Below are positions 2,783 through 24,513 of a stretch of 64,000 nucleotides of DNA, piece by piece. The first letter of the stretch is position 1. Each line of letters opens with the position of its first letter. Position numbers and translations under genes: made by a program. Location: NCBI GenBank assembly GCA_023898465.1, contig CP060223.1, forward strand, positions 864,001-928,000, given 5' to 3'. Origin of the DNA: Candidatus Nomurabacteria bacterium. GTDB taxonomy: Bacteria; Patescibacteriota; Patescibacteriia; HK-STAS-PATE-3. The notes under the pieces were generated by a model. It did no database searches, was not told the DNA's origin, and saw nothing but the letters and a program-made list of their open reading frames with translations.

Positions 2783-4885
2783 ATGATTATACGACGTGAA
2801 ACCTTAGTCACCCTGGCAGTCTCTTTTGGTATTATTATCCTCCTAAGTATTGGTGTGTACTACATTGGCACCTCGATCACACCTCAGAGCAGCAACACGA
2901 ATACGACAACGAATAGCAATCAGAATGTGGCTCCCGGACTGAAGCGTTTTGTGTCAGCTGAGGATTTCTCCCAATATCTGACAAGCGCAAGTCGACTCAA
3001 TACCCAGTATGGACTCCGTGATTCAGTTCTCAATGTAGTTACTCCTACTGCTTTTGAGCTAGAGTCAAGCGGTACTAAGAGCACAGCTGATCGCGTCTCA
3101 CAAACCAACGTGCAGGTAATGGGTATTGATGAGCCGGATATTGCCAAAACAGATGGGCAGCGTATCTACTACAGCCAAGATACCTACTACGGAGCATTGG
3201 AGTATCGAGGTATCAGCGATGAGTTATTAAAAACCTCACCTGCCTATACGCAGACTTCAAGCATTCTCAATGCCATACCAGCAAACGCACTCGCTGTCGC
3301 TGGCACATTACCCACTAGCGGACAGCTGCTCCTGACGGACAACGAAGTGCTTGTCCTGGGCTATGACGGCGTACATGCTTATCCGGCAAATACGAGCACG
3401 GTAAGTGAGGCGACTTGGGAGATGTCCTACGGAGATGCCACTTCATTAGTCACTGCGCGTTTACGAGAAGACACACTCTATCTTGTCACCAGCACCTCAC
3501 TGAATACCACCCAGCCATGCCCGATCACGCCACTACGAATTGCTGAAGGAGATGTGAGCATTGCCTGTACTGATATCTTCCACCCAGTGAATCCAACGCC
3601 AATCGATGTTGTCTACACTGTCTTTGCCATCGACCCAAGCAGTGGTGAAATAAAACAGGAATTAACCCTCAGTGGCCTCTCAGGACAATCTGTTGTCTAT
3701 GTTTCGCCCGAGACCCTCTACCTCACCTATACCTACACGAGTGATTGGGTCAATTCATTCCTAGATATTCTCATCACTGATACTGCTGATATTTTACCTA
3801 GTGAATTAATTGCAAAATTACAAAGACTCCGCACCTATGACTTGAGCGCTGAGGCACGCTTAACCGAGCTCGCCACCTTGCTTGGTGAATATGACGCAAG
3901 CATTTCAAATGAGGAGAAAGAAAACTTCCAAGAACAACTCACCACTGCAGTTGAACAAGGTGTGAAAGAGCGGCTGCGACAATGGGAACGAACTGGGATT
4001 ATTGCGGTTGATCTTGATCGACTGCAAGTGGCAGCGACCGGTGAAGTGCCTGGTCATCCCCTGAATCAATTTTCACTTGATGCTTATGCCGAGACCCTCC
4101 GTATTGCTACCTCCAGCGATGCTCGTTTTGTTGCCTCTTTCTCCGCCACCAGTCAAACAAATAATGACCTCTATATTCTCGACAAAGACTTGAAGCCCTT
4201 AGGCTCTATTCTCAATCTCGGGGAAGCAGGGGAAACTATCTATGGAGTACGCTTTGTCGAAGATACGGGCTACCTTGTTACCTTCCGTCAAACCGATCCC
4301 TTCTACGTCTTAGACCTGAGTGATCCGAAGAAGCCTATAGCTAGCGGCGAGTTAAAAATTCCTGGGTACTCTTCTTACCTGCATCCTATTGCGACGGATC
4401 GCATCCTCGGAGTAGGGCAGGATAATTTTCGTGTGAAGGTTTCTCTCTTTGATGTGAGCGATAAAAATGCGCCAAAGGAACTATCCACGCTTACATTAGA
4501 AAATGAGTACTGGTCTGACGTGCTTAATACTCATCACGCTTTTCTCCAAGATGCTGATCACTCCATCGTCTTTATCCCAGGATCGCAGGGAGGACATGTT
4601 ATCTCCTATACGAATGGAACTTTAAGCGAGGTGAAAAAGATTGAAGGCTTCGCTGTGCAGCGGGCACTCTACATTGATAATACGCTCTATGTCCTGGGCA
4701 GTAGTGAGGTGAGTGCAGTCGATGAAACGAGCTGGGAAACCATAAGCAGCGTAAGTCTCAACCAAAATAGGACAGGGGTTGAAGAGCCACAAAGCACGGA
4801 ACCAAGCGTTCCGATAGAGGACCTGCCAACTACTGAAGCAAATACTGGCGAAGGCACTAGTGCTACAGGCGATTCGACGGAATAG
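2783..4885 (+). CDS. Secreted/membrane-anchored beta-propeller domain protein (Beta_propel-like)
   Basis: N-terminal TM/signal anchor. The C-terminal region FYVLDLSDPKKPIASGELKIPGYSSYLHPI...VSLFDVSD resembles the archaeal/CPR 'beta propeller domain' family. C-terminal E/T/S-rich tail. Confidence 0.55.
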   Translation: MIIRRETLVTLAVSFGIIILLSIGVYYIGTSITPQSSNTNTTTNSNQNVAPGLKRFVSAEDFSQYLTSASRLNTQYGLRDSVLNVVTPTAFELESSGTKSTADRVSQTNVQVMGIDEPDIAKTDGQRIYYSQDTYYGALEYRGISDELLKTSPAYTQTSSILNAIPANALAVAGTLPTSGQLLLTDNEVLVLGYDGVHAYPANTSTVSEATWEMSYGDATSLVTARLREDTLYLVTSTSLNTTQPCPITPLRIAEGDVSIACTDIFHPVNPTPIDVVYTVFAIDPSSGEIKQELTLSGLSGQSVVYVSPETLYLTYTYTSDWVNSFLDILITDTADILPSELIAKLQRLRTYDLSAEARLTELATLLGEYDASISNEEKENFQEQLTTAVEQGVKERLRQWERTGIIAVDLDRLQVAATGEVPGHPLNQFSLDAYAETLRIATSSDARFVASFSATSQTNNDLYILDKDLKPLGSILNLGEAGETIYGVRFVEDTGYLVTFRQTDPFYVLDLSDPKKPIASGELKIPGYSSYLHPIATDRILGVGQDNFRVKVSLFDVSDKNAPKELSTLTLENEYWSDVLNTHHAFLQDADHSIVFIPGSQGGHVISYTNGTLSEVKKIEGFAVQRALYIDNTLYVLGSSEVSAVDETSWETISSVSLNQNRTGVEEPQSTEPSVPIEDLPTTEANTGEGTSATGDSTE

Positions 4886-6188
4886 TCTTTGCGCTCACTG
4901 AAGCCTTGTCCTCAGTGCAGCATTTTTTGCTGCAACCGTTTTGACAACAGCAGCAATCACACTTCCGCCGCCAAAACATAAGCAGAAGTATAAGCAGTAG
5001 CACCAGCAGGCCAAGCACTAGGATGCCAATGGCAATCCAGGAATAAAGCCAGAAGATTCCCGCAAACCAGAAACCACTCTCGGGTGCATATTTCACAACC
5101 TCAACACTGACGGAACTGCTCCGAATATTACCCGCATTGTCGATCGCTAATATGGTTATGGTGTGTGTTCCGTAGCTTAATTCCGGTAAGAGAAAAGGCT
5201 CCGTTGCTCCAGGTAGAGCAATAATGCGCTGCACATCATCAATCAATACTTCGTAGCGATCTATGCCTGACAGGGCGTCCTCAGTGCTGAAATCGATATT
5301 GGGTCGTAGATTGGTTGTTGGTTGATCACCCTCAACTCGGACTGAAAAAGGAAGTGGTGGGGTAGTATCAATCCGAACACGGAAATGGGTAGCCTCACTC
5401 CAGCCCGCTTCGTTTTTCGCTTTAATGTGGAAGTACCAAATACCATCTTCCTTGTCCTGATATTGGACGCTTAGCTCAGTGCCCTGCCCATCATCATTAG
5501 GAATCGTACCGGCACTTTGATCTAGGAGGTAACTAAAATCCTGCGCCTCACCATCAACACTCCAGGAAAGTAGTGGGTCAGCGTTGGCGTACCAAGAGTC
5601 CTGATTCGTGTGCGTATCAGACCAGACTGTTGGAGCAGGTAGTGGCTGCGGCTGAGGTGGTTCTTCTTCCGGTTGTTCTGGCTCAGTGCTTGGCCGTGAT
5701 GGTGGAGGAGCACTAATAACAAGAATGGCCGTGCCAGTTGATCCGAGTGCATCTGTGCCATAACCGTCGTTAAGCAAAACCCGAGCTCCCTCCATACTAA
5801 TAACTGCGGTTCCAGGCTGCTTGGCTTTAAACACTGCACGGAGAATAGTACCAGCCGGACCTGCATAGCCAGGCGTAGGTAAGCCCCCGGTGAAATCAAT
5901 CGTTCCACTGCCATTGTCATACACCGGGCCAATTGGCCAAAGTGTAAATAAGGAACCTCGATCAACTGATTCGAGTGTAACGAGGTCTTTAGGGAAATCA
6001 ATTCTGGCCTCCGCTGAGTTAACCGCCTCACCGCCCGAATTTACAACCAAAGTAACAGTCACTCGTTGTCCAACTGTTACATTTGAGCGAGCCGGGGAAA
6101 AGAATAAGGTTGCTTTAGCAAAAACAAAACTCGGCACCAAAAGTGCAAGTAATGTGAGTCCACTAATGCGAGCTAATCTCTTTTGCAT
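4863..6188 (-). CDS. Cell-surface protein with N-terminal signal peptide, cohesin-like domain, C-terminal TM anchor and Cys-rich cytoplasmic tail
   Basis: The start is chosen at MQKRLARISGLTLLALLVPSFVFA (signal peptide); the track ORF extends to 6236. TVGQRVTVTLVVNSGGEAVNSAEARIDFPKDLVTLESV is cohesin-like. The C-terminal hydrophobic segment is followed by WRRKCDCCCCQNGCSKKCC. It is paralogous to 6163..7308 (shared DQDTWY, QEDGI(W/Y)YF, RV(R/Q)ID(T/A)TPP motifs). Confidence 0.5.
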   Translation of the reverse strand: MQKRLARISGLTLLALLVPSFVFAKATLFFSPARSNVTVGQRVTVTLVVNSGGEAVNSAEARIDFPKDLVTLESVDRGSLFTLWPIGPVYDNGSGTIDFTGGLPTPGYAGPAGTILRAVFKAKQPGTAVISMEGARVLLNDGYGTDALGSTGTAILVISAPPPSRPSTEPEQPEEEPPQPQPLPAPTVWSDTHTNQDSWYANADPLLSWSVDGEAQDFSYLLDQSAGTIPNDDGQGTELSVQYQDKEDGIWYFHIKAKNEAGWSEATHFRVRIDTTPPLPFSVRVEGDQPTTNLRPNIDFSTEDALSGIDRYEVLIDDVQRIIALPGATEPFLLPELSYGTHTITILAIDNAGNIRSSSVSVEVVKYAPESGFWFAGIFWLYSWIAIGILVLGLLVLLLILLLMFWRRKCDCCCCQNGCSKKCCTEDKASVSAKTIPSNRL

Positions 6189-7308
6189 GTTTTTGCTTTC
6201 TGCGTAAACGATAGTGCCATAACAACAGTATAGCAACCAAGAGCAAAAGTACCCAGAAGTACCATGGCAGGACTTGATACCAGGCCTGCGGTAATGCGGC
6301 GAGCTCAGCGGTCTGAATATTACCAGCTAAATCATAGGCCTCGACCCGCACGACATCACTACGCTCCTGATCAACCAGCAAATATGGACTCCGCACATTG
6401 ATAGAACGCTGCCCGCCCTCTATCACGTCATAGCGATCTATACCTGAGGTCCGATCAATACTCTGGAATGAAATAACTGCTTTGCCAGAAAACTCATCTG
6501 CTTCCTTTGTGGAAATTATTTCAAAAGGTTCAGGTGGGGTAGCATCAATCTGCACCCGGTAACGAGCCACCTGACGCCAATCATCACCAGAAGTTCTTTC
6601 AAGGAGTGTAAAATAATAAATACCATCCTCTTGATTATCATACTCAACAAAACCACTCGCATCATCTGGTAATTCATCAGGCTGCTTTTCCGCATTTTGG
6701 GAAAAACTATAACTATATAACGCATTTGCTCGCGGCTCCCAAGTAAGCACCACATCACGTTCAGTGTACCAGGTATCTTGATCTGGATGCGTTGGCGAAT
6801 AAACAGTCACTTGATAGGCTGGCGACTGAATAACATTGATATCGAGTGCCTGCGTTGTTAAAGGAAGACGACTTCCCTCACCATTATGCATATACACTGC
6901 TGCTAGCTCCTTCGGTACAGTAAATCTAGCCTCACCGACTTTTATTGCTCGCAAAGTCATCTGCAATACTGTGGCATGAAAAGCATAGGTGCCGCCTGGA
7001 ATACCGCCAACAAAATGCACAGTGTGGGTTGCTGGCTGGTGAAGAGGAGGCTCAGGCCAAAGCTGTAAAAATGATTGCCCAATGCTAATATCCTCTAAGA
7101 CAAAAAGATCCCCGGGATAATGCACATCCGCTTCGATCGCGTTCATGGGTAAATGGTCACTATCAACCACTACGCTTACCAAAACGGTATCGCCTAAGCT
7201 AATGTTCTCCTGTGGTGCTTGAAGAGAAACTTGAGCAGCCTGAACTGCCTGGGCAAAGAAAATGCCGATACCAAAAAGGCTAAAAAATAGAAGTGAACGC
7301 TTCATCAT
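6163..7308 (-). CDS. Cell-surface protein, paralog of the downstream gene: signal peptide, cohesin-like domain, C-terminal TM anchor
   Basis: MMKRSLLFFSLFGIGIFFAQAVQA signal. GDTVLVSVVVDSDHLPMNAIEADVHYPGDLFVLEDISIGQSF is cohesin-like. The C-terminal TM is WYFWVLLLLVAILLLW followed by a basic tail. Confidence 0.5.
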   Translation of the reverse strand: MMKRSLLFFSLFGIGIFFAQAVQAAQVSLQAPQENISLGDTVLVSVVVDSDHLPMNAIEADVHYPGDLFVLEDISIGQSFLQLWPEPPLHQPATHTVHFVGGIPGGTYAFHATVLQMTLRAIKVGEARFTVPKELAAVYMHNGEGSRLPLTTQALDINVIQSPAYQVTVYSPTHPDQDTWYTERDVVLTWEPRANALYSYSFSQNAEKQPDELPDDASGFVEYDNQEDGIYYFTLLERTSGDDWRQVARYRVQIDATPPEPFEIISTKEADEFSGKAVISFQSIDRTSGIDRYDVIEGGQRSINVRSPYLLVDQERSDVVRVEAYDLAGNIQTAELAALPQAWYQVLPWYFWVLLLLVAILLLWHYRLRRKQKHAKEISSH

Positions 7309-7309
7309 A

Positions 7310-8185
7310 TTAGCCAGTCCAATGGAACATCATAATGCTAAAATCAACCACATCAACTAAGCCACTCTTATCAATATCAGCCCTAGTGTTGGCCGGGTGT
7401 GTATCAAGCCAGTAATAAAGCAAAATACTGAAGTCGACTAAATCAACTGAGCCGTCACAGTTTAAATCAGCAATGTTTGCGTAGCTGCAAGGATCTGGTT
7501 CAGTTGCCTCACTTACTACAAAGGTGAGTGTAGAGCTGTATTCAGAAATGCTGCTATCTGTTGCAACTGCACGAGCTCGAATACTATAGGTTCCAATACT
7601 GCTCAGCTCTTGCCCGCCCTGTAACGTATAAGACCATCGTCCGTCGGTATGAGCCGTTGCAGAAAAACTTTGATCACCATCTGGACCCGAGAGATAAAGT
7701 GTAAGCTGACTATTTGGCGCGGTATAACCTTGAATTTGGACACCTTCATCTAATCGAATACTGCTTGCACTGCCTTGTATGGTGGGGCCGAGAAAAATAC
7801 CACTCGCGCTTACCGTGGTGCCCTCTGCTATAGTAACCGACAAGGATAAACTAGGACCAAGCACGCCGTCTATATCAGTTCCCTGAATAGTGAAAGTGTA
7901 GGTGCCGGCTAAAATTTCGCTCTGAGTAGCAAAAGCAGCTGTACTAGTTGCAGTCGTACTCAACCAGGTACTTCCATTTTTCAATATTTGAATACTTGCT
8001 GAGGGGTAGGCGAGGCCCTGAAACTGTACAATGGTTTTTGGTTCTTCAGGCGGAGGCGGCGCTTCAACCACCGCACTCACCGAGAGTGTGTGCTGATCTG
8101 TCACTGTAGCGGCAAAGGCGCTAAGCAAAAAAAGCGGCAGAATGCTTAGCATGCTGACGACGGCAACGATGCTCCGTGTCTTCAC
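7310..8185 (-). CDS. Secreted dockerin-containing protein (Ig-like T/S-rich body + C-terminal type-I dockerin)
   Basis: Signal peptide. The C-terminus holds two 12-residue Ca-binding loop repeats with exact dockerin spacing, DLNCDGSVDLVDF and DIDKSGLVDVVDF, each followed by a hydrophobic helix. Confidence 0.7.
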   Translation of the reverse strand: MKTRSIVAVVSMLSILPLFLLSAFAATVTDQHTLSVSAVVEAPPPPEEPKTIVQFQGLAYPSASIQILKNGSTWLSTTATSTAAFATQSEILAGTYTFTIQGTDIDGVLGPSLSLSVTIAEGTTVSASGIFLGPTIQGSASSIRLDEGVQIQGYTAPNSQLTLYLSGPDGDQSFSATAHTDGRWSYTLQGGQELSSIGTYSIRARAVATDSSISEYSSTLTFVVSEATEPDPCSYANIADLNCDGSVDLVDFSILLYYWLDTHPANTRADIDKSGLVDVVDFSIMMFHWTG

Positions 8186-8202: not shown

Positions 8203-9237
8203 TTATTGCTGGTTGGCGCGAGTAAGGATCCAGTGGTTATAGCGCTTGATGCCAAAGATGACTGCAAGCACTACTACAACCAAGATGAGGAACATGAGCG
8301 TTAAGACGCGCCATGGCCACACCCAGAAGGTTAAGGTTGCGCTATCTTTTACCAAATCACCAGTACCAGCTGTCAGACTCACGCTGGCTTGATAGCGACC
8401 AAGCGCAAAGTTGTTCCATTCGTTACGGAATTCGGCCCAAAAGTTACCCCAGATATTACCTGGCGTTTCTTCTACTGTTGATTTTTCCCAGGTCGTTTCA
8501 TAGCGACGGATCGAGTCTGGTAAGGTTGCTCCGCCATTCTGATTCATGACAAGCTCAGCGCTAGTGCTGCCAAATAGATTTTTCACTACAACGCTTCCGG
8601 TTGGACGAAGGTGAATATTTCCCTCGTTTTGGAAACGAGTTGCAAAAGTCGCTGGTAAACGATTTAGACTCGAACCTTCATCTACAGTAAATTCAACGAT
8701 GCTGCCCTTTTCCTCTACGTCACCAAAAACACGGAGTAAGAAAAGCGAGCCAAGTTTGGTGCCAAGTGACACGCTGCCGGGCTCGGAATTTTCTGGTGGC
8801 TCAGTTGAGAAGAAGACAGTAGCATAATGACCACCTGGCTCGGCATCATTTGGTGGGGTGATGGTAATCGGTACCACGCGACGTTCGCCAGCTTCTAGGT
8901 GGACTGAACCATTTGGCAAAGAAAACCAAGAGGCAATATCAGGTACCTCACCGCTGAAATCATAGGTTGGAGTACCATCTTCACCAGAAGCAGTAAAGGT
9001 AGTTACCTCAGGGTAGAGGTCTACTGCGCTCTGTGTTTCATTAAATAGCTTAATTTGCGTATCAAACGGCACACCTGGATCAACCGAGGCCTCAAAAGAA
9101 GGAGGAATAAGGGTTAAGGCTTGCGCATTTGGAGTTTGCACAAAGGCAAAGCTAAAAGCAGCAACGAGCACAAATAGGCCCAGGATCGCTGTTTTTTGCA
9201 AAATGTTACTTTGTTTTCCCCCTTGATTCATCTTCAA
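8203..9237 (-). CDS. Secreted protein with N-terminal signal peptide and C-terminal TM anchor, unknown family
   Basis: N-terminal ILGLFVLVAAFSFAFV and C-terminal VLTLMFLILVVVVLAVIFGI hydrophobic segments. The architecture is reminiscent of membrane-anchored components of Gram-positive surface-complex loci. No motif is recognised with confidence. Confidence 0.4.
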   Translation of the reverse strand: MKMNQGGKQSNILQKTAILGLFVLVAAFSFAFVQTPNAQALTLIPPSFEASVDPGVPFDTQIKLFNETQSAVDLYPEVTTFTASGEDGTPTYDFSGEVPDIASWFSLPNGSVHLEAGERRVVPITITPPNDAEPGGHYATVFFSTEPPENSEPGSVSLGTKLGSLFLLRVFGDVEEKGSIVEFTVDEGSSLNRLPATFATRFQNEGNIHLRPTGSVVVKNLFGSTSAELVMNQNGGATLPDSIRRYETTWEKSTVEETPGNIWGNFWAEFRNEWNNFALGRYQASVSLTAGTGDLVKDSATLTFWVWPWRVLTLMFLILVVVVLAVIFGIKRYNHWILTRANQQ

Positions 9238-9272: not shown

Positions 9273-10343
9273 CTAAAATGTTGCAGTGGCAATATAGGTA
9301 ATGTCAGTGGTATAAAGTCCAGCTTCTGTATTGGCCGCAATGTTTGCAATATAGAAAGCGCTAATGTTTTCTGTTGCCGTTGGGCCAGTCTCCGAGGCAA
9401 AAGTTGTGGTCGTACTTGCCACAAAGGCCCAGTCTCGGTTACCCGGAGTTGCATTATGATCATATCCTGATGCGATGGTGGCATCACCGTCAGTTGAGTA
9501 ACTTACTCCAAACTCTTCAGTTCCAGGGGTGCCGTCAGCATCATTTGTTATTGAAGCTACATTGATGGTATCACCGCCGCTTGTTAGGGTTGCGCCGTTA
9601 TAGGTAACGATGTAGCCATCAGTAGCATTTGTACCAACGCTAATGGTATGAGCAGCAGCTGAATCGCTTGCTGAACCGTTTGTATCACCTGTTGCCCAGC
9701 GTGCATTTGAGGCACTCAAGGTACCGAAGCCAATAGTCGTGTCGGAGAGAGAAAAAGTAATAGATGCATCAACTGTGGCAGTAACATTCACACTGTCATC
9801 AGTAACGAAATCAAGTGCAAATTTACCAGAATCACCAAAGTTACCAGCTAATTCAATCACATGTGTGCTCGTATCATTTGGGCTAGTAAGCTGAGCATTT
9901 CCGCTCGCAGCGTTATTACCGATCTGCACCTGCACACAGCGATCTGCGGTAATTTCTCCGCTCGTAGCATCTGTCGGAGGAGTCAAGGTAAGCACGCTCG
10001 AGGCAAATGCAGCACCCCAAGTGCCCGCAGATGCAGTAGCCGCTAGGGTTTTATCTGAGAAAGTGCCATCACAAGCGTTATCATCATCAACCGCCAAGTC
10101 GATATCCGTGAAATCAACCGAACCTACCGTGAAATCAGTAAAGTCGATAGTAATGGTATCGGTTGAAGCGTCAACTCCGGTAGGAGTCACAAAAAGAATG
10201 GTGTGATCAGCTCCAACATTTTGCGTTAACGTATCTAAAGTATCAGAAACACTGGTTAAACCAGCAGCTTTCACCTCATACACTGGCAGTGAAAAGGCGG
10301 AGATAATGACGAGGATGAGAGCGAAAATTCCGTACTTTTGCAT
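9273..10343 (-). CDS. Secreted Thr/Ser/Asp/Gly-rich protein, paralog 1 of three, with C-terminal domain shared with the giant protein
   Basis: Signal peptide. The sequence aligns along its whole length with the next two ORFs. The C-terminal ~170 aa (ITFSLSDTTIGFGTL...AGLYTTDITYIATATF) aligns with the C-terminus of 12669..22625. Confidence 0.6.
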   Translation of the reverse strand: MQKYGIFALILVIISAFSLPVYEVKAAGLTSVSDTLDTLTQNVGADHTILFVTPTGVDASTDTITIDFTDFTVGSVDFTDIDLAVDDDNACDGTFSDKTLAATASAGTWGAAFASSVLTLTPPTDATSGEITADRCVQVQIGNNAASGNAQLTSPNDTSTHVIELAGNFGDSGKFALDFVTDDSVNVTATVDASITFSLSDTTIGFGTLSASNARWATGDTNGSASDSAAAHTISVGTNATDGYIVTYNGATLTSGGDTINVASITNDADGTPGTEEFGVSYSTDGDATIASGYDHNATPGNRDWAFVASTTTTFASETGPTATENISAFYIANIAANTEAGLYTTDITYIATATF

Positions 10344-10353
10344 AGTCTATTGA

Positions 10354-11424
10354 TTAAAAAGTCGCGGTGGCAATATATGTTATGTCGGTCGTGTACAAAC
10401 CCGCTTCAGTAATCGCGGCAATATTTGCGAGATATCGTACACCAATAGTTTCGGTGTTGGTCGGCACAGTTTCAGAAATAATTGTTGTCGTGGTGCTAGC
10501 TACAAAGGTCCAATCAGGATCACCGTGAGCATAGCCCGTGGCAATGGTTGCATCTCCGTCGGTAGTAATGCTCAATCCAAACTCTTCTGAGCCTGGTGTA
10601 CCATTCGCGTCATTATTAATTGAAGCCACGCTTATGGTATCAGAACCACTCGTTAACGTCGCACCATTATAGGTAATTGCCCAGCCATCAGTCGCGTTGG
10701 TGCTAACTGCTAGCGTATGAGCATCGGCTGAATCAGATGAAGAACCATTAGTATCGCCGGTCGCATACGTTGCTGCGCTTGAACTCAAAGTACCAAATCC
10801 TACCGTGGTGTCAGAAATAGCAAAGGTAATGGAAGGATCAACAGTCGCGGTTACGTTAACACTGTCATCGCCAACAAAATCAAGTGCAAACTTACCAGAA
10901 TCACCAAAGTTACCAGCGATTTCTACTACATGAGTACTGGTATCGTTTGGGTTATTGATCTGGTTAGAGCCACCTGAGGCGTTGCTACCAATCTGAATCT
11001 GCACACAACGTCCAGCAGTAATTTCTCCTGAGCTTGCATCAGTAGGAGGGGTCAGCGTTAACACATCAGAGGCAATCGCTGCGCCCCAAGTACCAGCCGC
11101 CGCTGAAGCCGCTAATGTCTTATCACTCCAAGATCCATCACAAGCAGCATCATCATCAACAGCAAGGTCAATATCACCAAAGGCAACGCTCGTGGTAGTA
11201 AAGTCTGTGAAGTCGATGGTAATGGTATCAGTTGAAGCGTCGACACCAGTAGGAGTTACAAAGTAAATCTCATGGTTTGCGTCAACAGCTTGAGTTAAAG
11301 TATTCAGCGTGTCAGAAATACTCGTCAAATTGGCAGCAAAAACCGGTCGAGCTGGGAAGCTCAACACCGTTACAAAAACTGCTATGAGAATGGCTATTTG
11401 TATTTTTTGTAGCTTTCCGTACAT
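10354..11424 (-). CDS. Secreted Thr/Ser/Asp/Gly-rich protein, paralog 2
   Basis: Starts MYGKLQKIQIAILIAVFVTVLSFPARPVFA. The N-terminal ~40 codons and upstream DNA are near-identical to paralog 3. Same C-terminal ...AGLYTTDITYIATATF. Confidence 0.6.
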   Translation of the reverse strand: MYGKLQKIQIAILIAVFVTVLSFPARPVFAANLTSISDTLNTLTQAVDANHEIYFVTPTGVDASTDTITIDFTDFTTTSVAFGDIDLAVDDDAACDGSWSDKTLAASAAAGTWGAAIASDVLTLTPPTDASSGEITAGRCVQIQIGSNASGGSNQINNPNDTSTHVVEIAGNFGDSGKFALDFVGDDSVNVTATVDPSITFAISDTTVGFGTLSSSAATYATGDTNGSSSDSADAHTLAVSTNATDGWAITYNGATLTSGSDTISVASINNDANGTPGSEEFGLSITTDGDATIATGYAHGDPDWTFVASTTTTIISETVPTNTETIGVRYLANIAAITEAGLYTTDITYIATATF

Positions 11425-11505: not shown

Positions 11506-12609
11506 TTAGAAAACCGCAGTGGCAATATAAGTAATGTCGGTTTGATAAAGACCCGCTTCAGTTATAGATGCGATATTCGCAATATAATGCACAAAAATCG
11601 ATTCTGCATTAGTTGGCCCAGTTTCGCTTACAAATTCAGTTACCGTGCTCGCAACAAAATTCCAATCTGATAAACTCGGCAAAGTGCTGTTCCATTGATA
11701 GCCGGATGTGATAACTGCGTCGTCCGACTTATCTGCCGACAAAGCGAACTGCTCTGTTCCTGGTGTACCATTGCCATCATTACTAATAGTTGCAGGACTA
11801 ATGGTATCTGATCCACTTGTTAAAGTTGCTCCATAATATGTGATGGCATATCCGCTGGTAGCATTTGTGCTTACTGTTAAATTATGTGCCGGTGAACTAT
11901 TCGTCCCTGTACCGTTGCCATCACTAGTAGCATAACGAGCCGCGCTTGAACTCAAGGTGCCAAATCCTACCGTGGTGTCAGAAATAGCAAAGGTAATGGA
12001 AGGATCAACCGTTGCAGTTACGTTGACGCTATCGTCAGCAACAAAATCAAGTGCAAATTTGCCGAAGTCATCAATTGCTCCCAAATTTCCAAAAATATCA
12101 ACTACATGGGTATTGGTATCATTCGGGTTAACTAATTGAGCATTCCCTCCTGATGCATTTGTACCAATCTGAATTTGCACACATCGTCCTGCTGGAATTT
12201 CTCCACTTGTGGCATCTGTTGGCGCATCAAATATTATATATTCAGAGGAAAGCTGGTTCACCGAAACTCCCCATACACCTGCAGCATCTGAACTCGCTAG
12301 TGTTTTTTCTGTCCAAGACCCATCACATCCCCCATCATCATCAACGGCTAAATCAATGTCGGTATAATCAAGAGTTGAAAAACCAAAATTAGCGAAATCA
12401 AACCGATAATAGTCTGCGTCAGCATCTACACCAACTGAAGTAATAAAATAAATCTCATGATTTGCAGCAGTATTTTGAGTAAGCGAGCTTAACGTATCAG
12501 AAATACTCGTCAAATTGGCAGCAAAAACCGGTCGAGCTGGGAAACTCAACACCGTTACAAAAACTGCTATGAGAATGGCTATTTGTATTTTTTGTAGCTT
12601 TCCGTACAT
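11506..12609 (-). CDS. Secreted Thr/Ser/Asp/Gly-rich protein, paralog 3
   Basis: The start is set at MYGKLQK by analogy with paralog 2; the track ORF begins 6 codons upstream at 12627. The C-terminus is ...AGLYQTDITYIATAVF. Confidence 0.55.
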   Translation of the reverse strand: MYGKLQKIQIAILIAVFVTVLSFPARPVFAANLTSISDTLSSLTQNTAANHEIYFITSVGVDADADYYRFDFANFGFSTLDYTDIDLAVDDDGGCDGSWTEKTLASSDAAGVWGVSVNQLSSEYIIFDAPTDATSGEIPAGRCVQIQIGTNASGGNAQLVNPNDTNTHVVDIFGNLGAIDDFGKFALDFVADDSVNVTATVDPSITFAISDTTVGFGTLSSSAARYATSDGNGTGTNSSPAHNLTVSTNATSGYAITYYGATLTSGSDTISPATISNDGNGTPGTEQFALSADKSDDAVITSGYQWNSTLPSLSDWNFVASTVTEFVSETGPTNAESIFVHYIANIASITEAGLYQTDITYIATAVF

Positions 12610-12612
12610 TCT
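12497..12612. repeat. Second copy of the 116-bp repeat (see 11312..11427)
   Basis: See the first copy. Confidence 0.7.
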
Positions 12613-12668
12613 AGAAATCGAAAACATCCTAATGAATAAAACACTATAGAACTTAAGACGTCAACTGA

Positions 12669-15600
12669 CTAGAATTTGCCAGTTACCACGTAAGTGATAT
12701 CGGTTGAGTAACTTCCAGCTGGGGTCGTACCAGCCGCATTAGCAATGTAATATATGCTGAAATTCTCAGTGGCCGTGCTACCAGCTTCTGAGGCAATGGT
12801 TGTGGTGGTATTTGCTACAAAGGAATAATCAGCTGGCGAAGTAGCATCATAACCAGAGGCGATGGTTGCGTCACCGTCTGTGGTACACGCAATGCCAAAC
12901 TGCTCACTCCCAGGTGCGCCATCATCATCATTGGAAATAGTGGCCGCATTAATATCATCAGACCCACTGGTAAGTAATGGTCCATAATAGGTAAGCGCAT
13001 ATCCATCATCCGCTGAGGTACGGACTGAAATAGTATGCGCCGAGGTTTTTGTACCCGTGCCTGATGCATCGCCGGTCGCGTATCTGGCGCCAGAGGTACT
13101 TAGAGGACCAAAGCCAACGCTGGTGTCAGAAATACTGAATTGCACTGCGTCAAAATCCCAGTTAGTTGTGTTTTGGCAATCAATATTTGAAACATGACTT
13201 GAATCAATCAAGTCACCGCCAGAAGCATCAGACCGACCCACATTTACAAACTTCACTGTTTGCGCGCCACTCACGTCAAGCAACCAGGTACCTGAACCCA
13301 AGCTAGAATTACGGAAAATTATTTCACTGCCATATGTCTGCCCATCCCAGTTAATATCATTCATGGTATAGGTTGAGCCAGAGTTATACTCTACTTTTAC
13401 ATCACTCGTAGTAATAGTGTATTCACCTGCTGTAGTTGCTGCCGCCGCAAAATCAACTCCAGGGGTAAAGGAAGCTGAACAACCAGAATACGACCCACTA
13501 CTGTTTTCAATTGCTAAGTCATAAAATGACGAAGCGCTTGTCATTGTTCCGGATAACGTTTGTAGCGAGGAACCATCTAAAACAACTCGGCTATTACCAT
13601 GAGTAAAGGTGTCACTATTTGCCCAATCACCGGCCAAAGTCAGCTCAGGTGAAAAGGCTGTAGAATTTACTTTTTGCTTTGTGCCACCTTCGTTTACACG
13701 TAAGGCAACCTGAGTTGGACTTGATCCTCCGCAAGAAGGAATAGCCAACCATATGGCAAACTCTACATAAAGCACTTGATTAGTAAGCGTTTCTTCTGGG
13801 ATGCCAGTAATAAAAATGGCATAGTCATTCGTTCCTGTGCTTATATTCACATTTTTCCATCCTGAGATTGCAACCGGATTTGCTAAGTCAGCATCAGCCT
13901 TCCATAATCTTGCGTTCACTTGACGTCGTCCGTATGAGCACGATCCGGCAGTATAGACCGTTGTGATATCTACCGACCAGGTACCAGCAGCGAAGGTTCC
14001 AGTAATTGGCTGACCATTGTTAAGCATCCATCCGGTATTAGTGATAGCACTCGGAATGCTTCCATCCCATGTGGTACTTGTATTCCCTGGCACAAAAGTA
14101 CAATATCCACTTTGACCTGTGCCGGTATCGTCGCATTTCGTCGTATCATTCGATGAGCCACTCGGGTCAACCGGCTTCATGCGCCAGCTCGAACCATAAC
14201 CACTCGTGTCACTGGTCAAATACCACGCTGTAGGACCACTCAGATCAAAGGTTCCGCCAGTAATGTTTACATCTCCGTTTATATCAAGAGGATAAATGGT
14301 TTTATAGGTAGCGCTCCCCCCAGCATCGTTAAGCTCAAGGTTATTTAAATTAGTTGCCGCTAGAGATGACGCTTCACTAGTGTCGATATATTGCGTGCCG
14401 CTTGTAGCATTCAATACTAAGTTACCAGTCGACTCAATAATAGTATCATTGTTGGTAAAGTTGCCAGCAACATACAAAGTATTTGCTCCATTAAAATCAA
14501 AGGTGCCGCCATAAATAGTGAGGTATCCATTGACATCCATGTCAGTCAGGAGATTCCACTCAGCCCCACCGCCGCTATCATTAAACTCAACATTATTAAA
14601 GAAGTCACTCCCTGTTCCATCTGCATCTATATCATAGGTACCGCTGCCCGCCTGGAAAAGCACATAGCCCGATGTATGAGAGAATGTACCATCGTTGTTC
14701 CAACCTCCACCTAATATCACAAATGATGACCCCACACTCAGGGTACTATTATCAATATGTACATCAGCTGCCTGAGTGGTAATGTTGCCGGCTGGCGCAT
14801 AGGTATCACCATTCCAAATATGCAGCTCAAAACCCGAATCAAAGGTTGCCGCTGATCCTGAAACACTATATTTAATATCATCGTCACCACTATCGCCGGT
14901 ATTTAGATTGGCGTTACTGATTGATCCAGTATCAGCTCGAACAATGACTGTATTCTGATACAGATCTATATCTGTCTTTGCCACACCATCAGACACAAGC
15001 ACAGTTGTTGCCTCCTCTGTTTCGTCATCGAGATATACAGTGACAATGTCGGTTGAGTTTGCTGGCACGCTTGTAATAGACCAAGCGCCGCTGCTGTCGG
15101 TAATTTCATCAGTGTAACTACCACTACCATTCACTTTCAGTGTGACCGTTTTGTTTACACCGCTCCCATCAAGTGGTGTAGTCCCTTCATTAGTATAGGC
15201 AATACCCGAAAGGTTAATGCCAGCCGCAAAAAGCCAGTTGGTGTTGTTTAGACAGTCAGTGTTTGTACCATCAGAAGCATCAATCTGATCACCACTAGAA
15301 GCGTCAGATCGGCCAACATTCACATAGGAAACTGCAGTTTGAGTACCCGAAACATCCAGCAGCCAAGTACCTGAACTTAAATTAGAGTTTCGGAAGATAA
15401 TATCATTACCAGTAGAAGCGCTCCAGTTAATATTTGTAATTGTATAAGTGGATCCGGAATTATATTCCACCTTCACGTTATTAGTCGTGATGGTGTAGTT
15501 ATTGCTTACTGTTGCGCTGTCAGCAAAATCAATACCGGGAGTGAAAGAGGTTGAACAACCTGAGTAGCTACCTGAACTGTTGGTAATGCTAAGATTATAG

Positions 15601-18600
15601 AAAGATTCTCCATCAGAGGTTATTGTTTGCGTCGAGGACCCATCAAGAATAACAGTTGACTGATCCGCGGTGAAAGTAGCGCTCCCACCAAAAATCATGC
15701 TCCCAGCTACATTAATTGTTGTTTCATCAGTCTCAACATCATCAGTGGCATCAAGTGTCCCATTAATAGTGAAAGTACTGTTAATATCCATTTCATATCC
15801 ATTAGTGTATAGGGTATCACCGGCGGCGATCGTTAAACTCAAGTAAGTCATATCAGTACCTAAGTTCAAACTGTCAGGAGAGGTACCAACCTGGACATTA
15901 CCTTGATTCTGCTTTGTCGCATTATTATCGTAAGCAAAAACATCTGCATCAAAAATCATTGTTCCACTACCAGTCGGACCGGTAAAAAGACCTCCGCTCG
16001 CCAAAGTGAAATCGCCAGCGATATTCATATTGACATTAGCATCGGCAGTGAAGCTCCCTGCGCTAACATCAAAAGTGCCATTCACATCCATGGCATCGGT
16101 ATTACTAATACTGCCACCAGTCACATCAAAATTTTGCAGGGCGGTAGTCGCCGATGTGAGCGTCTTTGACGTGCCATCCATCTCAAGGATGTTACCTGTA
16201 GAAATAGTAGTGGTCCCATCACTTAAATCAATATTTCCCGAGACGGACCAAGTGCCTGCTCCAGTAACTATCTGACCGTTACTCGAACCAAGCTTCACAT
16301 AAGAGACATCACCTGTAATTGAAACATCAGGGTCATTGTTATCACCGGTTAATGCAACAACTTGATTGTCTTCAACGGTTACTATTAAGGATCCGCTAAT
16401 AGTATGCGTACCAGCGCCCATATCGACCAACACACTAGTGAAGGAGGTGCCATTTGTATACACTTCTACATCATTACCGTAGGTACGAGCCGGCATGGTC
16501 ATATTACCTCCAGCACCAGCATCAAAACGAACAACTGAGGAGAGGGTGCCGCCTGTTGGAATTGTTGTCGTTGTTGCTACGGTTAAGCGTCCCGCTCCAG
16601 TAATTGAACCTGATAAAGTAAAACTTGACCCGGACCAGGTAACGGTACGACCTGATGAAATGCTTAAGGTGTCACTACTAGAAACAACTAAACTATTCGT
16701 AATCTCCACATCGCTTGTCTGCACGGTGATCGTGCCTGTTGAGCTAGGATCAACTGTAAAATTATACAGACTGTTTCCACCACCGCTGAACGTTTCTGCT
16801 GTTCCAGTCATTTTTAAATCCGCTGTAGAAACGACACTATAGGTGCCGTCCTGAAAATCAATACTACCCGCCACACTCCATGCGCCAGTGCCTGGCTCAA
16901 GGTCCTCGGTGCCTGTACCAACACCTGTGAAATCAATATCTCCTCCAATAGTAACAGTTGGGTTATTTGTTGAACCGTAAAAGTGAATATCACTACCATT
17001 TGCCGCGTTTAGAGTGAAATTATCTGATACAATAATACTGCCGGATCCACCAGTCACACTCGTCGTGCCGCCAAAAGGAGCGTTATTGTAAAGTTCCACA
17101 TAGCCTCCGTAGGTCCTCGCTGACATTGTCTGGTTATTACTCGTGGCATCAAAGCGTAGATTTGCTGAAAAGGTTCCAGTCGTGGGGAAGGCGGTAGTAG
17201 ATGTATAGATAAGTAAGCCAGCTCCTGAAATAATGCCTGATAAGGTTAAGGTGGATCCGCTATGTGTTAAGGTACGGCCGGTATCAATAACGAGTTGATC
17301 ATTTGATCCGACATCTAAAGTGCCACTCACTGTCAGGTCCGAAGTTTGCAAAGTGGTGGCTCCGCCAAATAGTGCATCAATGGTGAGATTATAAAGAGTG
17401 TTTCCGCCTCCAACTATAGTCACAGCGGTGCCGCTCATAACAACGGTTGAAGTTCCAGCTGTTACTGTTCCACCAGCCATATTAAGGTTGCCAGTTATGT
17501 TGTGACTTTCACTAGAAAGAGTAACAGTGCCTGAGAGCGTGAGATTTTTATATATGTTTCCTGCAATTGTTAGCGTCCCACTCCCATCCATCACTAGTGT
17601 ATTTGTACCTTCAATGGTATAGGTGCCGTTCGTAAAGTCAGCGCTACCTGAAACAGTCCAGGTCCCGGCCCCTGAGGTAATTGTTTCAGTTCCAGCCCCT
17701 GCTCCAGTGATAAAGTCTAGATCGCCTCCGATATTTACATCAGGATCATTGGTAGCCGCATCAACCGTAACAGAACAGTTACTGTATCCTTCGATTTCAA
17801 GATTTCCATCAATCGTAATGGTCTGACTACCCGCAGATCCAAAATTAACTTCTCGAGAACTCAGACCGCAGTCAGCCTGAATATAGATACTACCCCCAAA
17901 GGTTCTGCCTGGAATAGTATGGTCAGCGGTTGTTGGGTAAAAGAAAACATTCGCGTCCATGGTCCCGGTGGACGGAAAAGTTGCTGGGGTATAGTAATAG
18001 ACATACGCATTACCGCTGATGGTTCCGTTCAACACGAGTGAGGTGCCGGTATCATTATATAAATCAAAGTAAGACCCTGACTGAAGTGCTGCTTCATCAT
18101 TCGCGGCAACGGTTAAGGTATTATCAACAGCCACGCCATCATTAATAGTGATCGTCCCTGCCGAGCTGGGATCAATCTCTAAATCATAGAATGTGGCGCC
18201 ATTTGCCCAAATATTTCCACTAGTGCCAGTCATGACAAAGGTATGCCCAGTGGCAATATTTGTTGCCCCAGGGTCACGGAGATCAAGATTACCGCCGATC
18301 GACCAGGTACCACTACCGGTCGTAATATGTTCAAAAGAGCCTGGTCCATCTTCACGATCTAAATCGCCACCAATAACCAGATCGGGATTCCAAACCGAAC
18401 CATCTATAGTTGCCGATGAACTCTGCGCATAAATTAAAAAGCTTCCGTTAATAGTAATGGTTTGTGAGGCAGCACTCCCTAATATCAACTTATAAGAAGA
18501 AAGACCTCCTTGATAGTATTCCACATCACCCTGGTAGGTACGTGCAGTCATGGTTCGATCAGCAGATCCAGAATAGTACTGCAGTAACGCGCTAATAACT

Positions 18601-21600
18601 CCCGTTGTAGGGAAGAGTTCGCTTGTCTTATAAATAACTTTTCCAGATCCTGAAATTGTACCGTCGAGAGAGATCGCCGTTCCTGTTGTCCTAATTAAAT
18701 TAACAGTCCGGCCACTATCAATTACTAATTCACCATTACTCGAGACAGTTAATACCTCTGAGATTGAAAAATCAGAAGTCTGCATAGTAATTGTTCCTGC
18801 AGAGCTTGGACTAATACTAAGATTACGTAGGGTGCGATTATCTGCCACAATGGTATTACTCGTACCCGTCATAACAAAGAGATTTCCAGATGATGAGCTT
18901 AAATTACCATTGGAGAAATCAATATCCCCTCCAACAGTCCAAGTGCCACTGCCTGTTAAAATATATTCCTGCCCGGACCCAACCCCAATATACAAAAGAT
19001 CACCGCCTATGTTTACGGTAGGATTATAGGTGGTGCCATAAATATATTGGTAATTGGTACCTGCAGCATTTATCCATAAATCACCGTCGATGGTTACTGT
19101 TTGACCTGACGAACTGCCCATATACATCACACGAGCAGTGCTTCCACTGTTGTACGCTTCCACACTACCTCCATAGGTACGACCACTTAAACGAGGATTT
19201 CCGTTAGTTGTATCCATGCGAAGATTCACGCTGATAGTGCCTGTAGTAGGAAAGTTAGTTGTCGACGCATAGCTCACCCATCCACTACCACTTAAAATCC
19301 CGTTGAGCGTAAGCACGGTGCCTGTTGTCTTTGAGAGCGTTATAAATACAGCGCTATCTAAACTAAATGTGTCGCTGGTTTGGACGGTCAAAGCGTTGCT
19401 AATGGTGAAGTCATTAGTGTTCGCAGTGATAGTTCCAGTTGAGCTTGGATTAATAACCACATTATAGTGTTGCTGATCGGTATTGAAGGTATTGCTGGTG
19501 CCGGTCATTGTGAGCGTACTAGTATTACTCGTCAGCCCTCCACTGCTTGTCATGGTGTAATTTCCTCCTACGGAAATACTGGCCGAACCAGCATATACAA
19601 CCGCGCCGCTTGAAGTATGAGAGAAATTTCCACTGATTGTTACAGGTGTTTTAGTAATCGTGAGACTGCCGGACATGCTCGTCACTGAAATGCTTGCCAC
19701 GGTTGCAACCGCACTAGTATCCCAGTCCGAGTTATCATTACTGGTACCGTCAAAAATTATATCGTCACTGGTGCCTGGACATGTATCGTTATTCCAGTTT
19801 GCACATTCAGACCAGCTGGCAGTTGTTCCATCACCATCCCATGTCTTGGTTGCGTCAGCCGCGATCTGCCAGAGTCGAGCTTCAGTAAACGCAATGCTCT
19901 CATCTCTACGAGTAAACTGCAGCGGTCCCAACTGATAGAAGAATGGTGAAACATTTGGTGCATCAAAAGTGTAAGCAAGGGTATATTCCTCTCCTGCTAG
20001 CCAATCCACTTCCCATTGAATAATGCGATGTCCATCTTGCGGATCACTTACCGTGCCATCGCCACTGATAGCACTTATCGCAAAGGTATCCGGAACCTCT
20101 TCGGTAACTATTCCCTGAAAACCCTCGCTAGTTTGAACGGTAAACTGTACCGGGTATTGAGCGGGAGGATAAATGCGTGTAGGAAACTCTGTGCGCTGTA
20201 CTGAAAAAGGCACTACATCCGCCAGAGAAAAATGATCTTGAATTTGTCGCGTGCCATCCTTGGTAGTGGCTTGTACATCAACTTGATATTCACCTTCTTG
20301 AGTCCCAGTGTAGAAGAATGAATAATCCGGCTCGTTTGTCACGCTTTTATCTACACAATCAGGGTTCTTTTCAATCGTCGCGTCGCTGGTATGAAATACT
20401 GAGGCACTGCCTGATGGATCAGTTACGGTGACATCAATATTTGCATCGCAAACTGTTCGCCCTAAATCATCCACTACTGCTAAGTGCACTTTTTGTGCCG
20501 TGTTTGTCGGGGCTAAAGACTGTCGTACATTTACTGCTACTACGCCCCAATAAAAAGTTTGTGTAAGCACTTTATCTTCCCCTAAGGCAGTCGTCGCAAT
20601 CTCAACTTCATACTTACCTGGTCGCCCAAAATCAGCTTCACTGAAACGAAGCTCTAGCTCCCCCTCAGCAGTGAGTACTTCACTCGGATCAGATTGAATT
20701 TCTTCACCAACAGGCGTACGCAACTTCACCTCTTTAACTAAAACAGTTGAGACGGGTGATTGCTTTGTTGTCTCAACCGGGTGCATCGCTTTCAGTTTCA
20801 TCACCGGCTCTTCATCAGCTTGAATAACCTGTGTTTCAGTTTCCAAACTTAGATCATCGCTAGAAGGAAGTGGGATAAAGATGGGTGTTTCATTTGTCCT
20901 TTCATCTACGTGTAGCTGCCACGCGTGCTGCTCAGACCAGCTACTTCCATAGGTCTGATTATTTCGAAACTCGGCAAAGCCATCGGCACGAAGCGGACCA
21001 AGAACAAAAGATTGAGGTGTCTGCTCCGGGGCTTTCACGACATAGGAGAGGCTAGCTGATTCACCTTTTTTCCAAACTACAGACCACTGCAACTCATCGC
21101 CAATTTGCTTTCCCCCTTGCCCAACACTACTTATTTTTAAATTGGCAGGTATGGGCTCTACAACGGTGCCAATATAGTCGTCTCCAACCACAAATTCTAA
21201 AAAGACATCGTAACTCTGTTTAGGCACCAAGCGGGTTGGAGCGATTCGCGTCAGCTGCAAATTTGTCTGCTCAACAACCTCTAAAGTGCTTTGCGCTCGA
21301 TATGTGCCAGCGTATGAGGATGCATCTAAGCGTATTCGATACTCGCCAACTTCATCGAGAGGAAAGGAGGCCAAATAATCGGCCACGCTACTCACTACAT
21401 CAGGACTGCAGTCCTCTGAGCGCTGGATACCTTCAGTCAATGCATAGTCATTGTGCACACCTGATGGTGAAATCGTCTCAATATGCACATCCGCATTGCA
21501 AATTGTCCTACCATTATTATCAAGAAATCCTAGGGAAAGTTGCGCAGTATCATTTAATTGATAGACTGATCGAGCGTCGTTCATAATAACCACTCCCCAG

Positions 21601-22625: not shown

Positions 22626-22710
22626 CTGCAATTGTGCCTTCGGATTTTTCTTTGTTCTTTGACGTGGTGTCGGCACCGAAGCCCCCTCGAAAAGCAAAAA
22701 AAGTTGTTAC

Positions 22711-22719
22711 ATTATACCA
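22711..22719 (-). promoter_or_regulatory. Extended -10 element (TGgTATAAT) upstream of the giant surface-protein gene
   Basis: The minus strand reads aaaaaaTGGTATAATgtaacaac, about 85 nt upstream of the proposed ATG at 22625. Confidence 0.4.
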
Positions 22720-22825
22720 TTTTTTGCCTGTAACGTCGATTAAAGAAAAAGGGAATATAGCACCGTACTATCACAAGACAGCCATGCGGTCATGGAAGAG
22801 ATAATTTAAACAAAGTTCCTTTGTG

Positions 22826-23218: not shown

Positions 23219-23222
23219 AGCT

Positions 23223-23675: not shown

Positions 23676-23708
23676 ACCCTACGGCTTCTCTTGTTTTTTT
23701 GCAACTGG

Positions 23709-24512: not shown

Positions 24513-24513
24513 A

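Follow-up and report, generated by a model that had tools for sequence, protein, structure and literature searches.

This study concerns a run of genes on the minus strand of a 64-kb stretch of DNA, below called the window, from Candidatus Nomurabacteria, which belongs to the candidate phyla radiation (CPR, Patescibacteria) and is represented by a metagenome-assembled genome. Genes 22697 to 4863 of the window form one Pam-type pilus operon, at the 3′ end of which a gene for a dockerin protein (7310-8185) is followed by two genes for cohesin-domain membrane proteins (6163-7308 and 4863-6188). The dockerin protein is probably the base subunit of the pilus, tethered to the membrane by cohesin-dockerin binding in the manner of a split PamR. 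Identification of the modules is solid and the anchoring role is a well-supported reading which we rate as probable; we infer the donation of a strand to the last pilin, the binding of the dockerin to the neighbouring cohesins and which end of the pilus is the proximal one. A total of 83 related loci was fetched, and adjacency of genes was counted in the loci with enough flanking DNA. The dockerin gene and the two cohesin genes very probably act together, because only 1 nucleotide (nt) separates the stop codon of the dockerin gene from the ATG of the cohesin gene 6163-7308, and because a cohesin gene adjoins the dockerin gene in 75/75 loci with at least 1.2 kb of downstream DNA.

The Pam pilus has been described from cryo-electron microscopy of filaments of Ca. 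Mycosynbacter amalyticus, and each of its pilins has an N-domain joined by a linker strand to a truncated immunoglobulin (Ig)-like C-domain, which is completed by the linker of a neighbour (Troman et al., bioRxiv 10.64898/2026.03.03.709456). As helpers the same preprint proposes PapD-like chaperones anchored by a transmembrane (TM) helix (PamC/D), a tip protein with only a C-domain (PamT) and PamR, an RbmA-like protein with an extra N-terminal strand, two fibronectin type III (FnIII) domains and a TM helix that is proposed to terminate and anchor the filament. Pam pilin homologues are reported there mainly from Saccharimonadia and Microgenomatia, and cohesin or dockerin is nowhere mentioned in it.

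The distribution of donor strands and acceptor domains over the operon assigns a place to each structural protein. A giant protein has only an acceptor domain, which would put it at the distal tip, the pilins have both a donor strand and an acceptor domain and would thus make up the shaft, and the dockerin protein has only a donor strand, as a proximal and chain-ending subunit would. In the dockerin protein the dockerin arm occupies the place of the pilin's acceptor domain, which is the form expected of a subunit that ends the chain. With a pilin strand motif at its N-terminus, no acceptor domain and relatives fused to pilin N-domains, it looks like the membrane-proximal terminal subunit of the pilus. 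A single-protein PamR, with N-terminal strand, two FnIII domains and C-terminal TM helix, is not encoded in the operon, and no other candidate for a terminator or anchor was found in it. The features are the following.

22711-22739, minus strand: sigma-70-like site TCGACG-17-TATAAT with TG, the best site, just 5′ of the giant gene; possible operon promoter, weak evidence
12669-22697, minus strand: giant secreted protein, 3342 amino acids (aa), with a C-terminal Pam-pilin acceptor domain; proposed pilus tip or adhesin fibre
11506-12627, minus strand: Pam-type pilin 3, with N-domain, donor strand SVNVTATVD (nt 12004-12030) and C-terminal acceptor domain; NF058581 71.9 bits
10354-11424, minus strand: Pam-type pilin 2, donor strand nt 10837-10863; NF058581 67.4 bits
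9273-10343, minus strand: Pam-type pilin 1, donor strand nt 9768-9794; NF058581 72.1 bits
8203-9237, minus strand: putative membrane-anchored pilus chaperone, PamC/D-like, 344 aa; weak WxLIP_PGBD match
7310-8185, minus strand: dockerin protein, 291 aa, with GTG start and AGGAG as ribosome-binding site; proposed as the pilus base subunit or terminator
8111-8185, minus strand: its signal peptide, residues 1-25, ending in SAFA before the A of the mature protein, as read from the sequence
8039-8086, minus strand: its putative donor strand LSVSAVVE (8063-8086), with the core common to the pilin linker, and proline-rich linker APPPPEEP (8039-8062)
7511-8038, minus strand: its two tandem Ig/FnIII-like domains, residues 50-225; Big_13 29.4 bits, AlphaFold2 (AF2) predicted local distance difference test (pLDDT) ~98
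7313-7489, minus strand: its type-I dockerin module, residues 233-291, with conserved Cys233/Cys243; by Pfam, profile and AF2
6163-7308, minus strand: cohesin anchor 1, 381 aa; AF2 and Foldseek, paralogue of 4863-6188
4863-6188, minus strand: cohesin anchor 2, 441 aa from the ATG at 6188; Pfam Cohesin, Big_13 and domain hidden Markov models (HMMs)
2783-4885, plus strand: beta-propeller gene, convergent, bounding the 3′ side of the pilus gene run

Dockerin module and putative donor strand of the 7310-8185 protein

The minus-strand translation of 7310-8185 has the C-terminus ...CSYANIADLNCDGSVDLVDFSILLYYWLDTHPANTRADIDKSGLVDVVDFSIMMFHWTG, which holds two 12-residue Ca2+-binding loops at residues 240-251 and 270-281 (nt 7433-7468 and 7343-7378). 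Loop 1, DLNCDGSVDLVD, is followed by the helix FSILLYYW, and loop 2, DIDKSGLVDVVD, by the helix FSIMMFHW and a final TG. A preliminary description of the window had named a type-I dockerin with two canonical Ca2+ loops at this end of the reading frame, and both points were borne out. The EF-hand-like ligands at loop positions 1, 3, 5, 9 and 12 are D,N,D,D,D in loop 1 and D,D,S,D,D in loop 2. Pfam Dockerin_1 (PF00404) scores 25.4 bits against a threshold of 22.9 over residues 239-285 (profile positions 2-52 of 57), and a 46-member family profile matches the solved type-I dockerins 4fl4_A (7e-5), 2y3n_B (8e-5), 5nrm_B (6e-4) and 1daq (1e-3), the alignments to 4fl4_A and 2y3n_B spanning both dockerin repeats. 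The AF2 model of the protein (pLDDT 89.6) has helices at 249-257 and 279-290 with a local pLDDT of ~95-98. Invariant in the 46-sequence alignment are the key aspartates D240, D251, D270 and D281 together with S253, I254, W259, S283, I284 and W289, while N242 and D244 are nearly so, and PF00404 is present in almost all of 120 listed homologues. This is a genuine type-I dockerin, far beyond chance. The spacing of its loops, which had been called exact, is not: the loop-to-loop distance is 30 residues, 3-6 below that of the aligned solved dockerins.

Loop positions 10-11 are L-V and V-V (family consensus L-V and I-x), and the Ser/Thr-type recognition pair of C. thermocellum is absent. Such hydrophobic positions point to a distinct specificity group and are no argument against the dockerin fold. 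C243 is position 4 of the first loop, and the pair C233/C243 is kept across the dockerin family (7451-7489) and probably forms a disulfide clasp; none of three aligned solved dockerins has Cys at the matching positions. When the Ig pair of the dockerin protein was searched with Foldseek, RbmA of V. cholerae (4be6_A, 4.5e-7) ranked fourth among many tandem-Ig proteins, and hhalign of this pair with the Ig pair of the cohesin proteins, the cohesin domain and the pilin C-domain gave probabilities below 3%.

At the other end of the protein the mature N-terminus reads ...HTLSVSAVVE-APPPPEEP. The consensus core V-x-V-[ST]-A-T-V is identical between pilins and dockerin proteins, and a strict donor motif, [VIL]x[VIL][ST]Ax[VI], was counted in the open reading frames (ORFs) of the related loci. 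It was present in 49/68 pilins, at the linker, and in 50/85 dockerin-family ORFs, either at the mature N-terminus or, in long variants, just behind a pilin-like N-domain. The controls gave 8/189 for cohesin, 7/101 for chaperone and 3/40 for giant ORFs, and most of the control matches inspected lay within signal-peptide or TM segments. The family alignment has only 21 invariant columns, and A38 and V40 of the dockerin-protein strand belong to them; the strand is unpacked in the AF2 monomer (pLDDT about 50-60). Dockerin-family members lacking the strict motif have an alternating beta-strand directly behind the signal peptide and then a linker that is Cys-rich or poly-Gly. Such linkers are found in Paceibacteria-type relatives (L048, L049, L058, L061, L075 and L082), in which a Cys-rich module, e.g. 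CGDGxCNGxETCxxCPxDCGxC, and a poly-Gly stretch of up to ~15 residues replace the PPEEP linker. Dockerin proteins of one subgroup (L046, L066 and P0293) have a different N-terminal domain and an FnIII domain.

No pilin acceptor C-domain was found in the 7310-8185 protein by domain HMM scan. In several loci the dockerin proteins are ~440 aa long and show homology to the pilin N-domain over their first ~190 residues (E 4e-36, 2e-35 and 2e-21), the order being pilin N-domain, strand motif and then Ig-Ig-dockerin. A HMMER search with the 66-aa dockerin module gave 2440 representatives at E<=1e-3. The best 150 of these comprised 74 Ig2-dockerin proteins, 22 of the form pilin-N-domain-(Ig2)-dockerin and ~28 unrelated multi-repeat proteins, the remainder being mostly fragments, and none of these 150 had a pilin C-domain. 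A separate homologue search with the 66-aa dockerin alone returned 12 fragments and was uninformative. The same dockerin subtype, at 60-66% identity, also stands at the C-terminus of three far larger surface proteins, P0297 (1349 aa), P0314 (919 aa) and P0253 (1063 aa), of which P0253 begins with a pilin-like N-domain and the other two have unrelated N-terminal regions; from these it appears that some lineages may dock extra cargo on the cohesin anchors.

Two further groups of dockerin-bearing proteins were considered and set aside. The essential 'dockerin' protein SEML1_0315 of Southlakia (Cell 2023) is a stand-alone protein of 927 aa encoded between a hydrolase gene and a tRNA gene; lying outside a Pam-like operon, it gives no functional support. 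The dockerin-type giant proteins of Omnitrophota have multi-repeat architectures and are unrelated to the dockerin-protein family.

Pilus genes, cohesin anchors and their conservation

The minus-strand gene run from 22697 to 4863 has intergenic gaps of 1-81 nt, and the two cohesin genes overlap by 26 nt. Promoter and terminator scans of the region gave counts equal to the shuffle expectation, with only the site before the giant gene being notable. The three pilins are paralogues of ~360 aa and score 67-72 bits with the NCBIfam model NF058581 (CPR_Pam_pilin_C, 'Pam pilus system pilin subunit'), for which the cutoff is 55; in each of them DDSVNVTATVD immediately precedes the C-domain. Apart from this pilin C-domain, none of the Pam models matched the sequence of a protein of the operon.

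A full Pam-pilin C-domain also makes up the last ~157 aa of the giant protein (nt 12672-13142), the C-terminal 140 aa scoring 76.8 bits with NF058581 and E 4e-60 with an HMM built for the C-terminal domain itself. No [VIL]x[VIL][ST]Ax[VI] motif was found upstream of this domain, and the same holds for 17 giant proteins of other loci. With the model of the tip pilin PamT the giant C-domain scores 47.8 bits, the highest of the four C-domains, against a cutoff of 240, and there is no small PamT. By its domain content the giant protein is predicted to be a functional analogue, and not an equivalog, of PamT. It is a candidate host-binding tip fibre and possibly corresponds to the 'tail fibre-like protein' that the Pam preprint mentions in its analysis of gene neighbourhoods. 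It has a hydrophobic N-terminal segment at residues 33-55 and no Pfam or NCBIfam domain except the C-terminal Pam-pilin domain, and its homologues in other loci reach 4600-5700 aa.

In the product of 8203-9237 a signal peptide is combined with a TM helix at the C-terminus (nt 8248-8313). The protein gives a weak match to Pfam WxLIP_PGBD (DUF916), with members of its family reaching 28.1 bits against a cutoff of 27.3, and no match to the NCBIfam Pam chaperone models; it is a putative PamC/D-like chaperone by analogy. Across related loci the chaperone family matches WxLIP_PGBD and once WxLIP_HBD (e.g. L056:8940-9902 and L008:7598-8518). The gene was also tried as a third cohesin anchor and rejected, as neither Pfam nor a cohesin-domain HMM detects a cohesin in it and its family matches are of the WxLIP type.

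Both cohesin anchors share one layout, consisting of signal peptide, cohesin, two Big_13-like Ig domains, one TM helix and a short tail. In 6163-7308 these parts are the signal peptide at nt 7237-7308, the cohesin at nt 6811-7236, the Ig-like pair at nt 6289-6810 and the TM helix at nt 6211-6282, followed by a basic cytoplasmic tail. In 4863-6188 they are the cohesin at nt ~5700-6116, a proline-rich linker at nt 5631-5714, the Ig-like domains at nt ~5100-5633 and the TM helix at nt 4971-5072, directly followed by the Cys-rich tail RRKCDCCCCQNGCSKKCC (nt 4917-4970). This Cys-rich cytoplasmic tail may serve in metal binding or acylation, the tail of anchor 1 being merely basic.

Pfam Cohesin (PF00963), which the preliminary description had named as a check, matches 4863-6188 with 25.6 bits against a threshold of 24.1, alongside Big_13, and gives no match to 6163-7308 at E<=1. 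The two proteins are full-length paralogues with 31% identity (E 1e-41), and 18/33 members of the cohesin-anchor family match Pfam Cohesin (E<=0.01, best 6e-9); the cohesin-family profile gives weak cohesin matches in the PDB, with E 0.04-0.5. The AF2 model of 6163-7308 (pLDDT 90.6, helix 343-380) has the nine-stranded jelly-roll beta-sandwich of cohesin topology, and its best single-domain Foldseek matches are cohesins: 2vo8, the GH33 cohesin of C. perfringens, with a TM-score of 0.79 (root-mean-square deviation 2.8 A), 6kgf_C with 0.72 and 5m2o_A with 0.69, and further 5aoz and 1qzn. The fold is that of a cohesin, as had been proposed. The dockerin gene does have two neighbours that encode type-I membrane proteins with cohesin domains, in agreement with the preliminary description; the second of them, 4863-6188, lies outside the coordinates given there, and the upstream gene 8203-9237 is not one of them.

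Relatives of the dockerin protein form 534 clusters in the protein collection, and species-representative genomes contain the family in no fewer than 575 stretches, which bear the labels Kerfeld-, Doudna-, Nealson-, Portnoy-, Morani- and Taylorbacteria, Minisyncoccales and other Patescibacteria. Almost without exception, the 83 loci have the order giant gene, pilin(s), chaperone(s), dockerin gene and 1-5 cohesin genes. In 66/76 loci the gene immediately upstream of the dockerin gene is chaperone-like, and in 37/51 a pilin lies within 4.5 kb upstream. Among the loci lacking a recognised pilin, many encode longer dockerin proteins (~340-530 aa), some of which possess their own N-terminal domain. 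More than one cohesin gene was present in 54/55 loci with at least 6 kb of downstream DNA, namely two paralogues in 32 loci and three to five in 22.

Proposed termination and anchoring of the pilus

Pam-type pili are filaments whose Ig-like subunits are linked through donor-strand exchange and which assemble on the outer side of the cytoplasmic membrane. As we picture it, the dockerin protein would be secreted and its N-terminal strand donated to the C-domain of the last-added pilin, and since it offers no groove for a further subunit, growth of the pilus would end. The Ca2+-dependent dockerin would then plug into the N-terminal cohesin of one or both of the downstream type-I membrane proteins, whose two Ig-like domains and TM helix would hold the joint above the membrane. 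The complex, strand-Ig-Ig-dockerin bound to cohesin-Ig-Ig-TM, would amount to a split and longer PamR made of two polypeptides joined non-covalently.

Several observations weigh against this picture. The Ser-Thr recognition positions of C. thermocellum dockerins are replaced by Leu-Val and Val-Val, so that cohesin binding is assumed solely from family membership and gene adjacency. The donor motif is just 7 residues long and its strict form is missing from 35/85 dockerin-family ORFs. RbmA is only one among many tandem-Ig matches of similar score, and cohesin anchor 1 taken alone has no Pfam Cohesin match. The two to five cohesin genes per dockerin gene are not accounted for, and mirror-tree correlations of the dockerin module, r=0.55 with the adjacent cohesin, 0.39 with the second cohesin and 0.61 with the chaperone, give no specific signal. 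The order of Pam assembly is itself based on AlphaFold, only PamA and PamB filaments being experimental (10.64898/2026.03.03.709456).

An alternative which we regard as unlikely is that the dockerin protein is a pilus subunit but the cohesin proteins are an usher-like or regulatory station that recruits or times termination or releases the finished pilus, with no lasting tether. Several cohesin paralogues per locus (two in 32 loci, three to five in 22) would suit such a station, dual or switching binding is conceivable from the near-symmetric dockerin repeats, and Pam pili 'appear easily untethered' (10.64898/2026.03.03.709456). Nevertheless, the cohesin proteins have no catalytic or pore-forming domain and consist of a single TM helix and a beta-sandwich stalk, and simple tethering is more parsimonious.

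Somewhat less likely again is a display of the Ig-like dockerin protein on its cohesin anchors as an adhesin or spacer, unconnected to any pilus filament. The architecture of cohesin, dockerin and TM helix is compatible with it, the Ig domains are similar to those of biofilm or adhesin proteins, Bap (7dm0) and RbmA among them, and no pilin was recognised within 4.5 kb upstream in 14/51 loci. Display would however leave unexplained the invariant N-terminal strand that copies the pilin linker, the fusions to pilin N-domains and the fixed place of the gene between chaperone and cohesin genes in pilus operons. The preliminary description, in which the pair merely displays a small Ig-like protein, has to be revised here, the protein having a pilin strand motif and no acceptor domain, with pilin-N-domain fusions elsewhere.

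Improbable is the view that the dockerin-like module makes a Ca2+-binding contact to peptidoglycan, S-layer or host glycans and that the cohesin-like proteins are independent of it. No cohesin partner is known for many dockerin-like modules, the recognition residues are unlike those of characterised dockerins and a specific mirror-tree signal of co-evolution is missing. This is opposed by the adjacency of a cohesin gene in 75/75 loci, by translational coupling in the window, by the dockerin subtype being almost confined to the dockerin-protein family and by the content of the window, in which an HMM scan of all six frames over 64 kb detected exactly one dockerin and two cohesins. A miniature cellulosome-like display of enzymes, favoured only by the presence of cohesin and dockerin modules, is effectively refuted for the locus of the window: no glycoside hydrolase was found among the scanned genes from 853 to 28008, in line with the non-cellulolytic context noticed earlier, no dockerin-bearing enzyme in the 64-kb window, the sole dockerin sits on a non-enzymatic Ig protein in a CPR host with a reduced genome, and in place of dockerin-bearing carbohydrate-active enzymes and a multi-cohesin scaffoldin there are two single-cohesin proteins.

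Tethering of the base subunit by cohesin and dockerin may extend well beyond the window. For the wider proposal that it is the standard tether of Pam-type pili with giant-adhesin tips in a large part of Patescibacteria, on a membrane with neither outer-membrane usher nor sortase, the chances appear about even. It would concern hundreds of species-level genomes of Kerfeldbacteria, Nomurabacteria, Doudnabacteria, Nealsonbacteria, Moranbacteria and others. The joint would then be non-covalent, Ca2+-dependent and maybe releasable, and pilus anchoring rather than enzyme assembly would be one of the commonest natural uses of cohesin and dockerin.

Related systems and flanking genes

The closest known counterpart is PamR, likewise encoded in an operon with Pam pilins and TM-anchored chaperones and likewise having an N-terminal strand and two tandem RbmA-like FnIII/Ig domains. 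PamR, for which a role in stopping elongation and attaching the filament to the cytoplasmic membrane is proposed, carries a C-terminal TM helix on the same chain, whereas the protein of the window has a dockerin instead and its membrane anchor would be provided in trans by cohesin-Ig-Ig-TM proteins.

In the cellulosomes of Clostridium/Acetivibrio the dockerin of the scaffoldin is bound by cohesins of anchoring scaffoldins. The operon resembles this in that the C-terminal dockerin of a structural protein would be held in an envelope-anchored cohesin, with the same folds and Ca2+-loop architecture (PDB 3l8q, 5k39, 4u3s and 5g5d). It differs in having a TM helix in place of S-layer homology repeats or sortase, a pilus as the proposed cargo instead of enzymes and a single cohesin per anchor, and its dockerin differs from cellulosomal dockerins in the shorter linker between repeats, the hydrophobic recognition positions (LV/VV) and the Cys pair. 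Cohesin-dockerin pairing outside plant cell-wall degradation is a likeness to non-cellulosomal modules, which were reportedly surveyed by Peer et al. in 2009 (FEMS Microbiol Lett); toxin and sialidase complexes of Clostridium perfringens use such pairs. To our knowledge, the non-cellulosomal cases join enzymes or toxins or are without an assigned role, and we know of none tied to pilus biogenesis.

PapH, the terminator of a chaperone-usher pilus, donates a strand, cannot accept one and ends polymerisation at the cell-proximal side; the groove of its pilin fold is blocked, and it remains within the outer-membrane usher. Unlike PapH, the dockerin protein lacks a pilin acceptor domain altogether and would be held by a separate docking module in a monoderm-type envelope.

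WxL/WxLIP (DUF916-DUF3324) clusters follow the same cluster logic as the operon, the chaperone family of which matches WxLIP_PGBD. In Firmicute WxL clusters a small acceptor-only protein accompanies a large protein with the same C-terminal domain, and a TM-anchored two-Ig protein is predicted to insert a strand, with no cohesin or dockerin reported (Hassan et al. 2023, PMC10599100). The pilins of the window matched no Pfam family, WxL included, at E<=1. It is possible that Pam pili are homologous to the surface complexes of the WxL type.

Cohesin and dockerin modules are already known outside cellulosomes, homologues of the dockerin protein are named 'dockerin type I repeat-containing protein' by NCBI, and Pam pili have been known since 2026. 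In the literature searched, no account was found of a cohesin-dockerin pair conserved within pilus operons or serving to anchor a pilus; what would be new is a Pam-type pilus that has such a pair as its terminator and anchor. CPR bacteria are regarded as host-attached, and in the Pam pilus, first described in 2026, the anchoring step was merely modelled. If the proposed anchoring is correct, a very widespread Pam branch anchors its pili by a module known almost only from cellulosomes, which would be a second major role of cohesin and dockerin and would account for a family annotated in hundreds of genomes only as 'dockerin type I repeat-containing protein'. Three interactions are implied, of the strand with the pilin, of the dockerin with the cohesin and of the TM helix with the membrane, and they are testable with recombinant fragments and without culturing. 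The pair would also be a natural, small and orthogonal cohesin-dockerin pair with unusual hydrophobic recognition positions.

Directly 5′ of the pilus operon, on the minus strand at 22826-26120, are genes for MsrB, for a free-standing C39-type peptidase of 150 aa, for an ABC-2 permease plus its ATPase, and for MsrA, which may be linked to the processing or export of surface proteins. Farther away, at 50993-51068 on the plus strand, ARAGORN called a tRNA-Ile with the anticodon TAT (UAU), which is uncommon in bacteria, where AUA is usually decoded by a lysidine-modified CAU tRNA.

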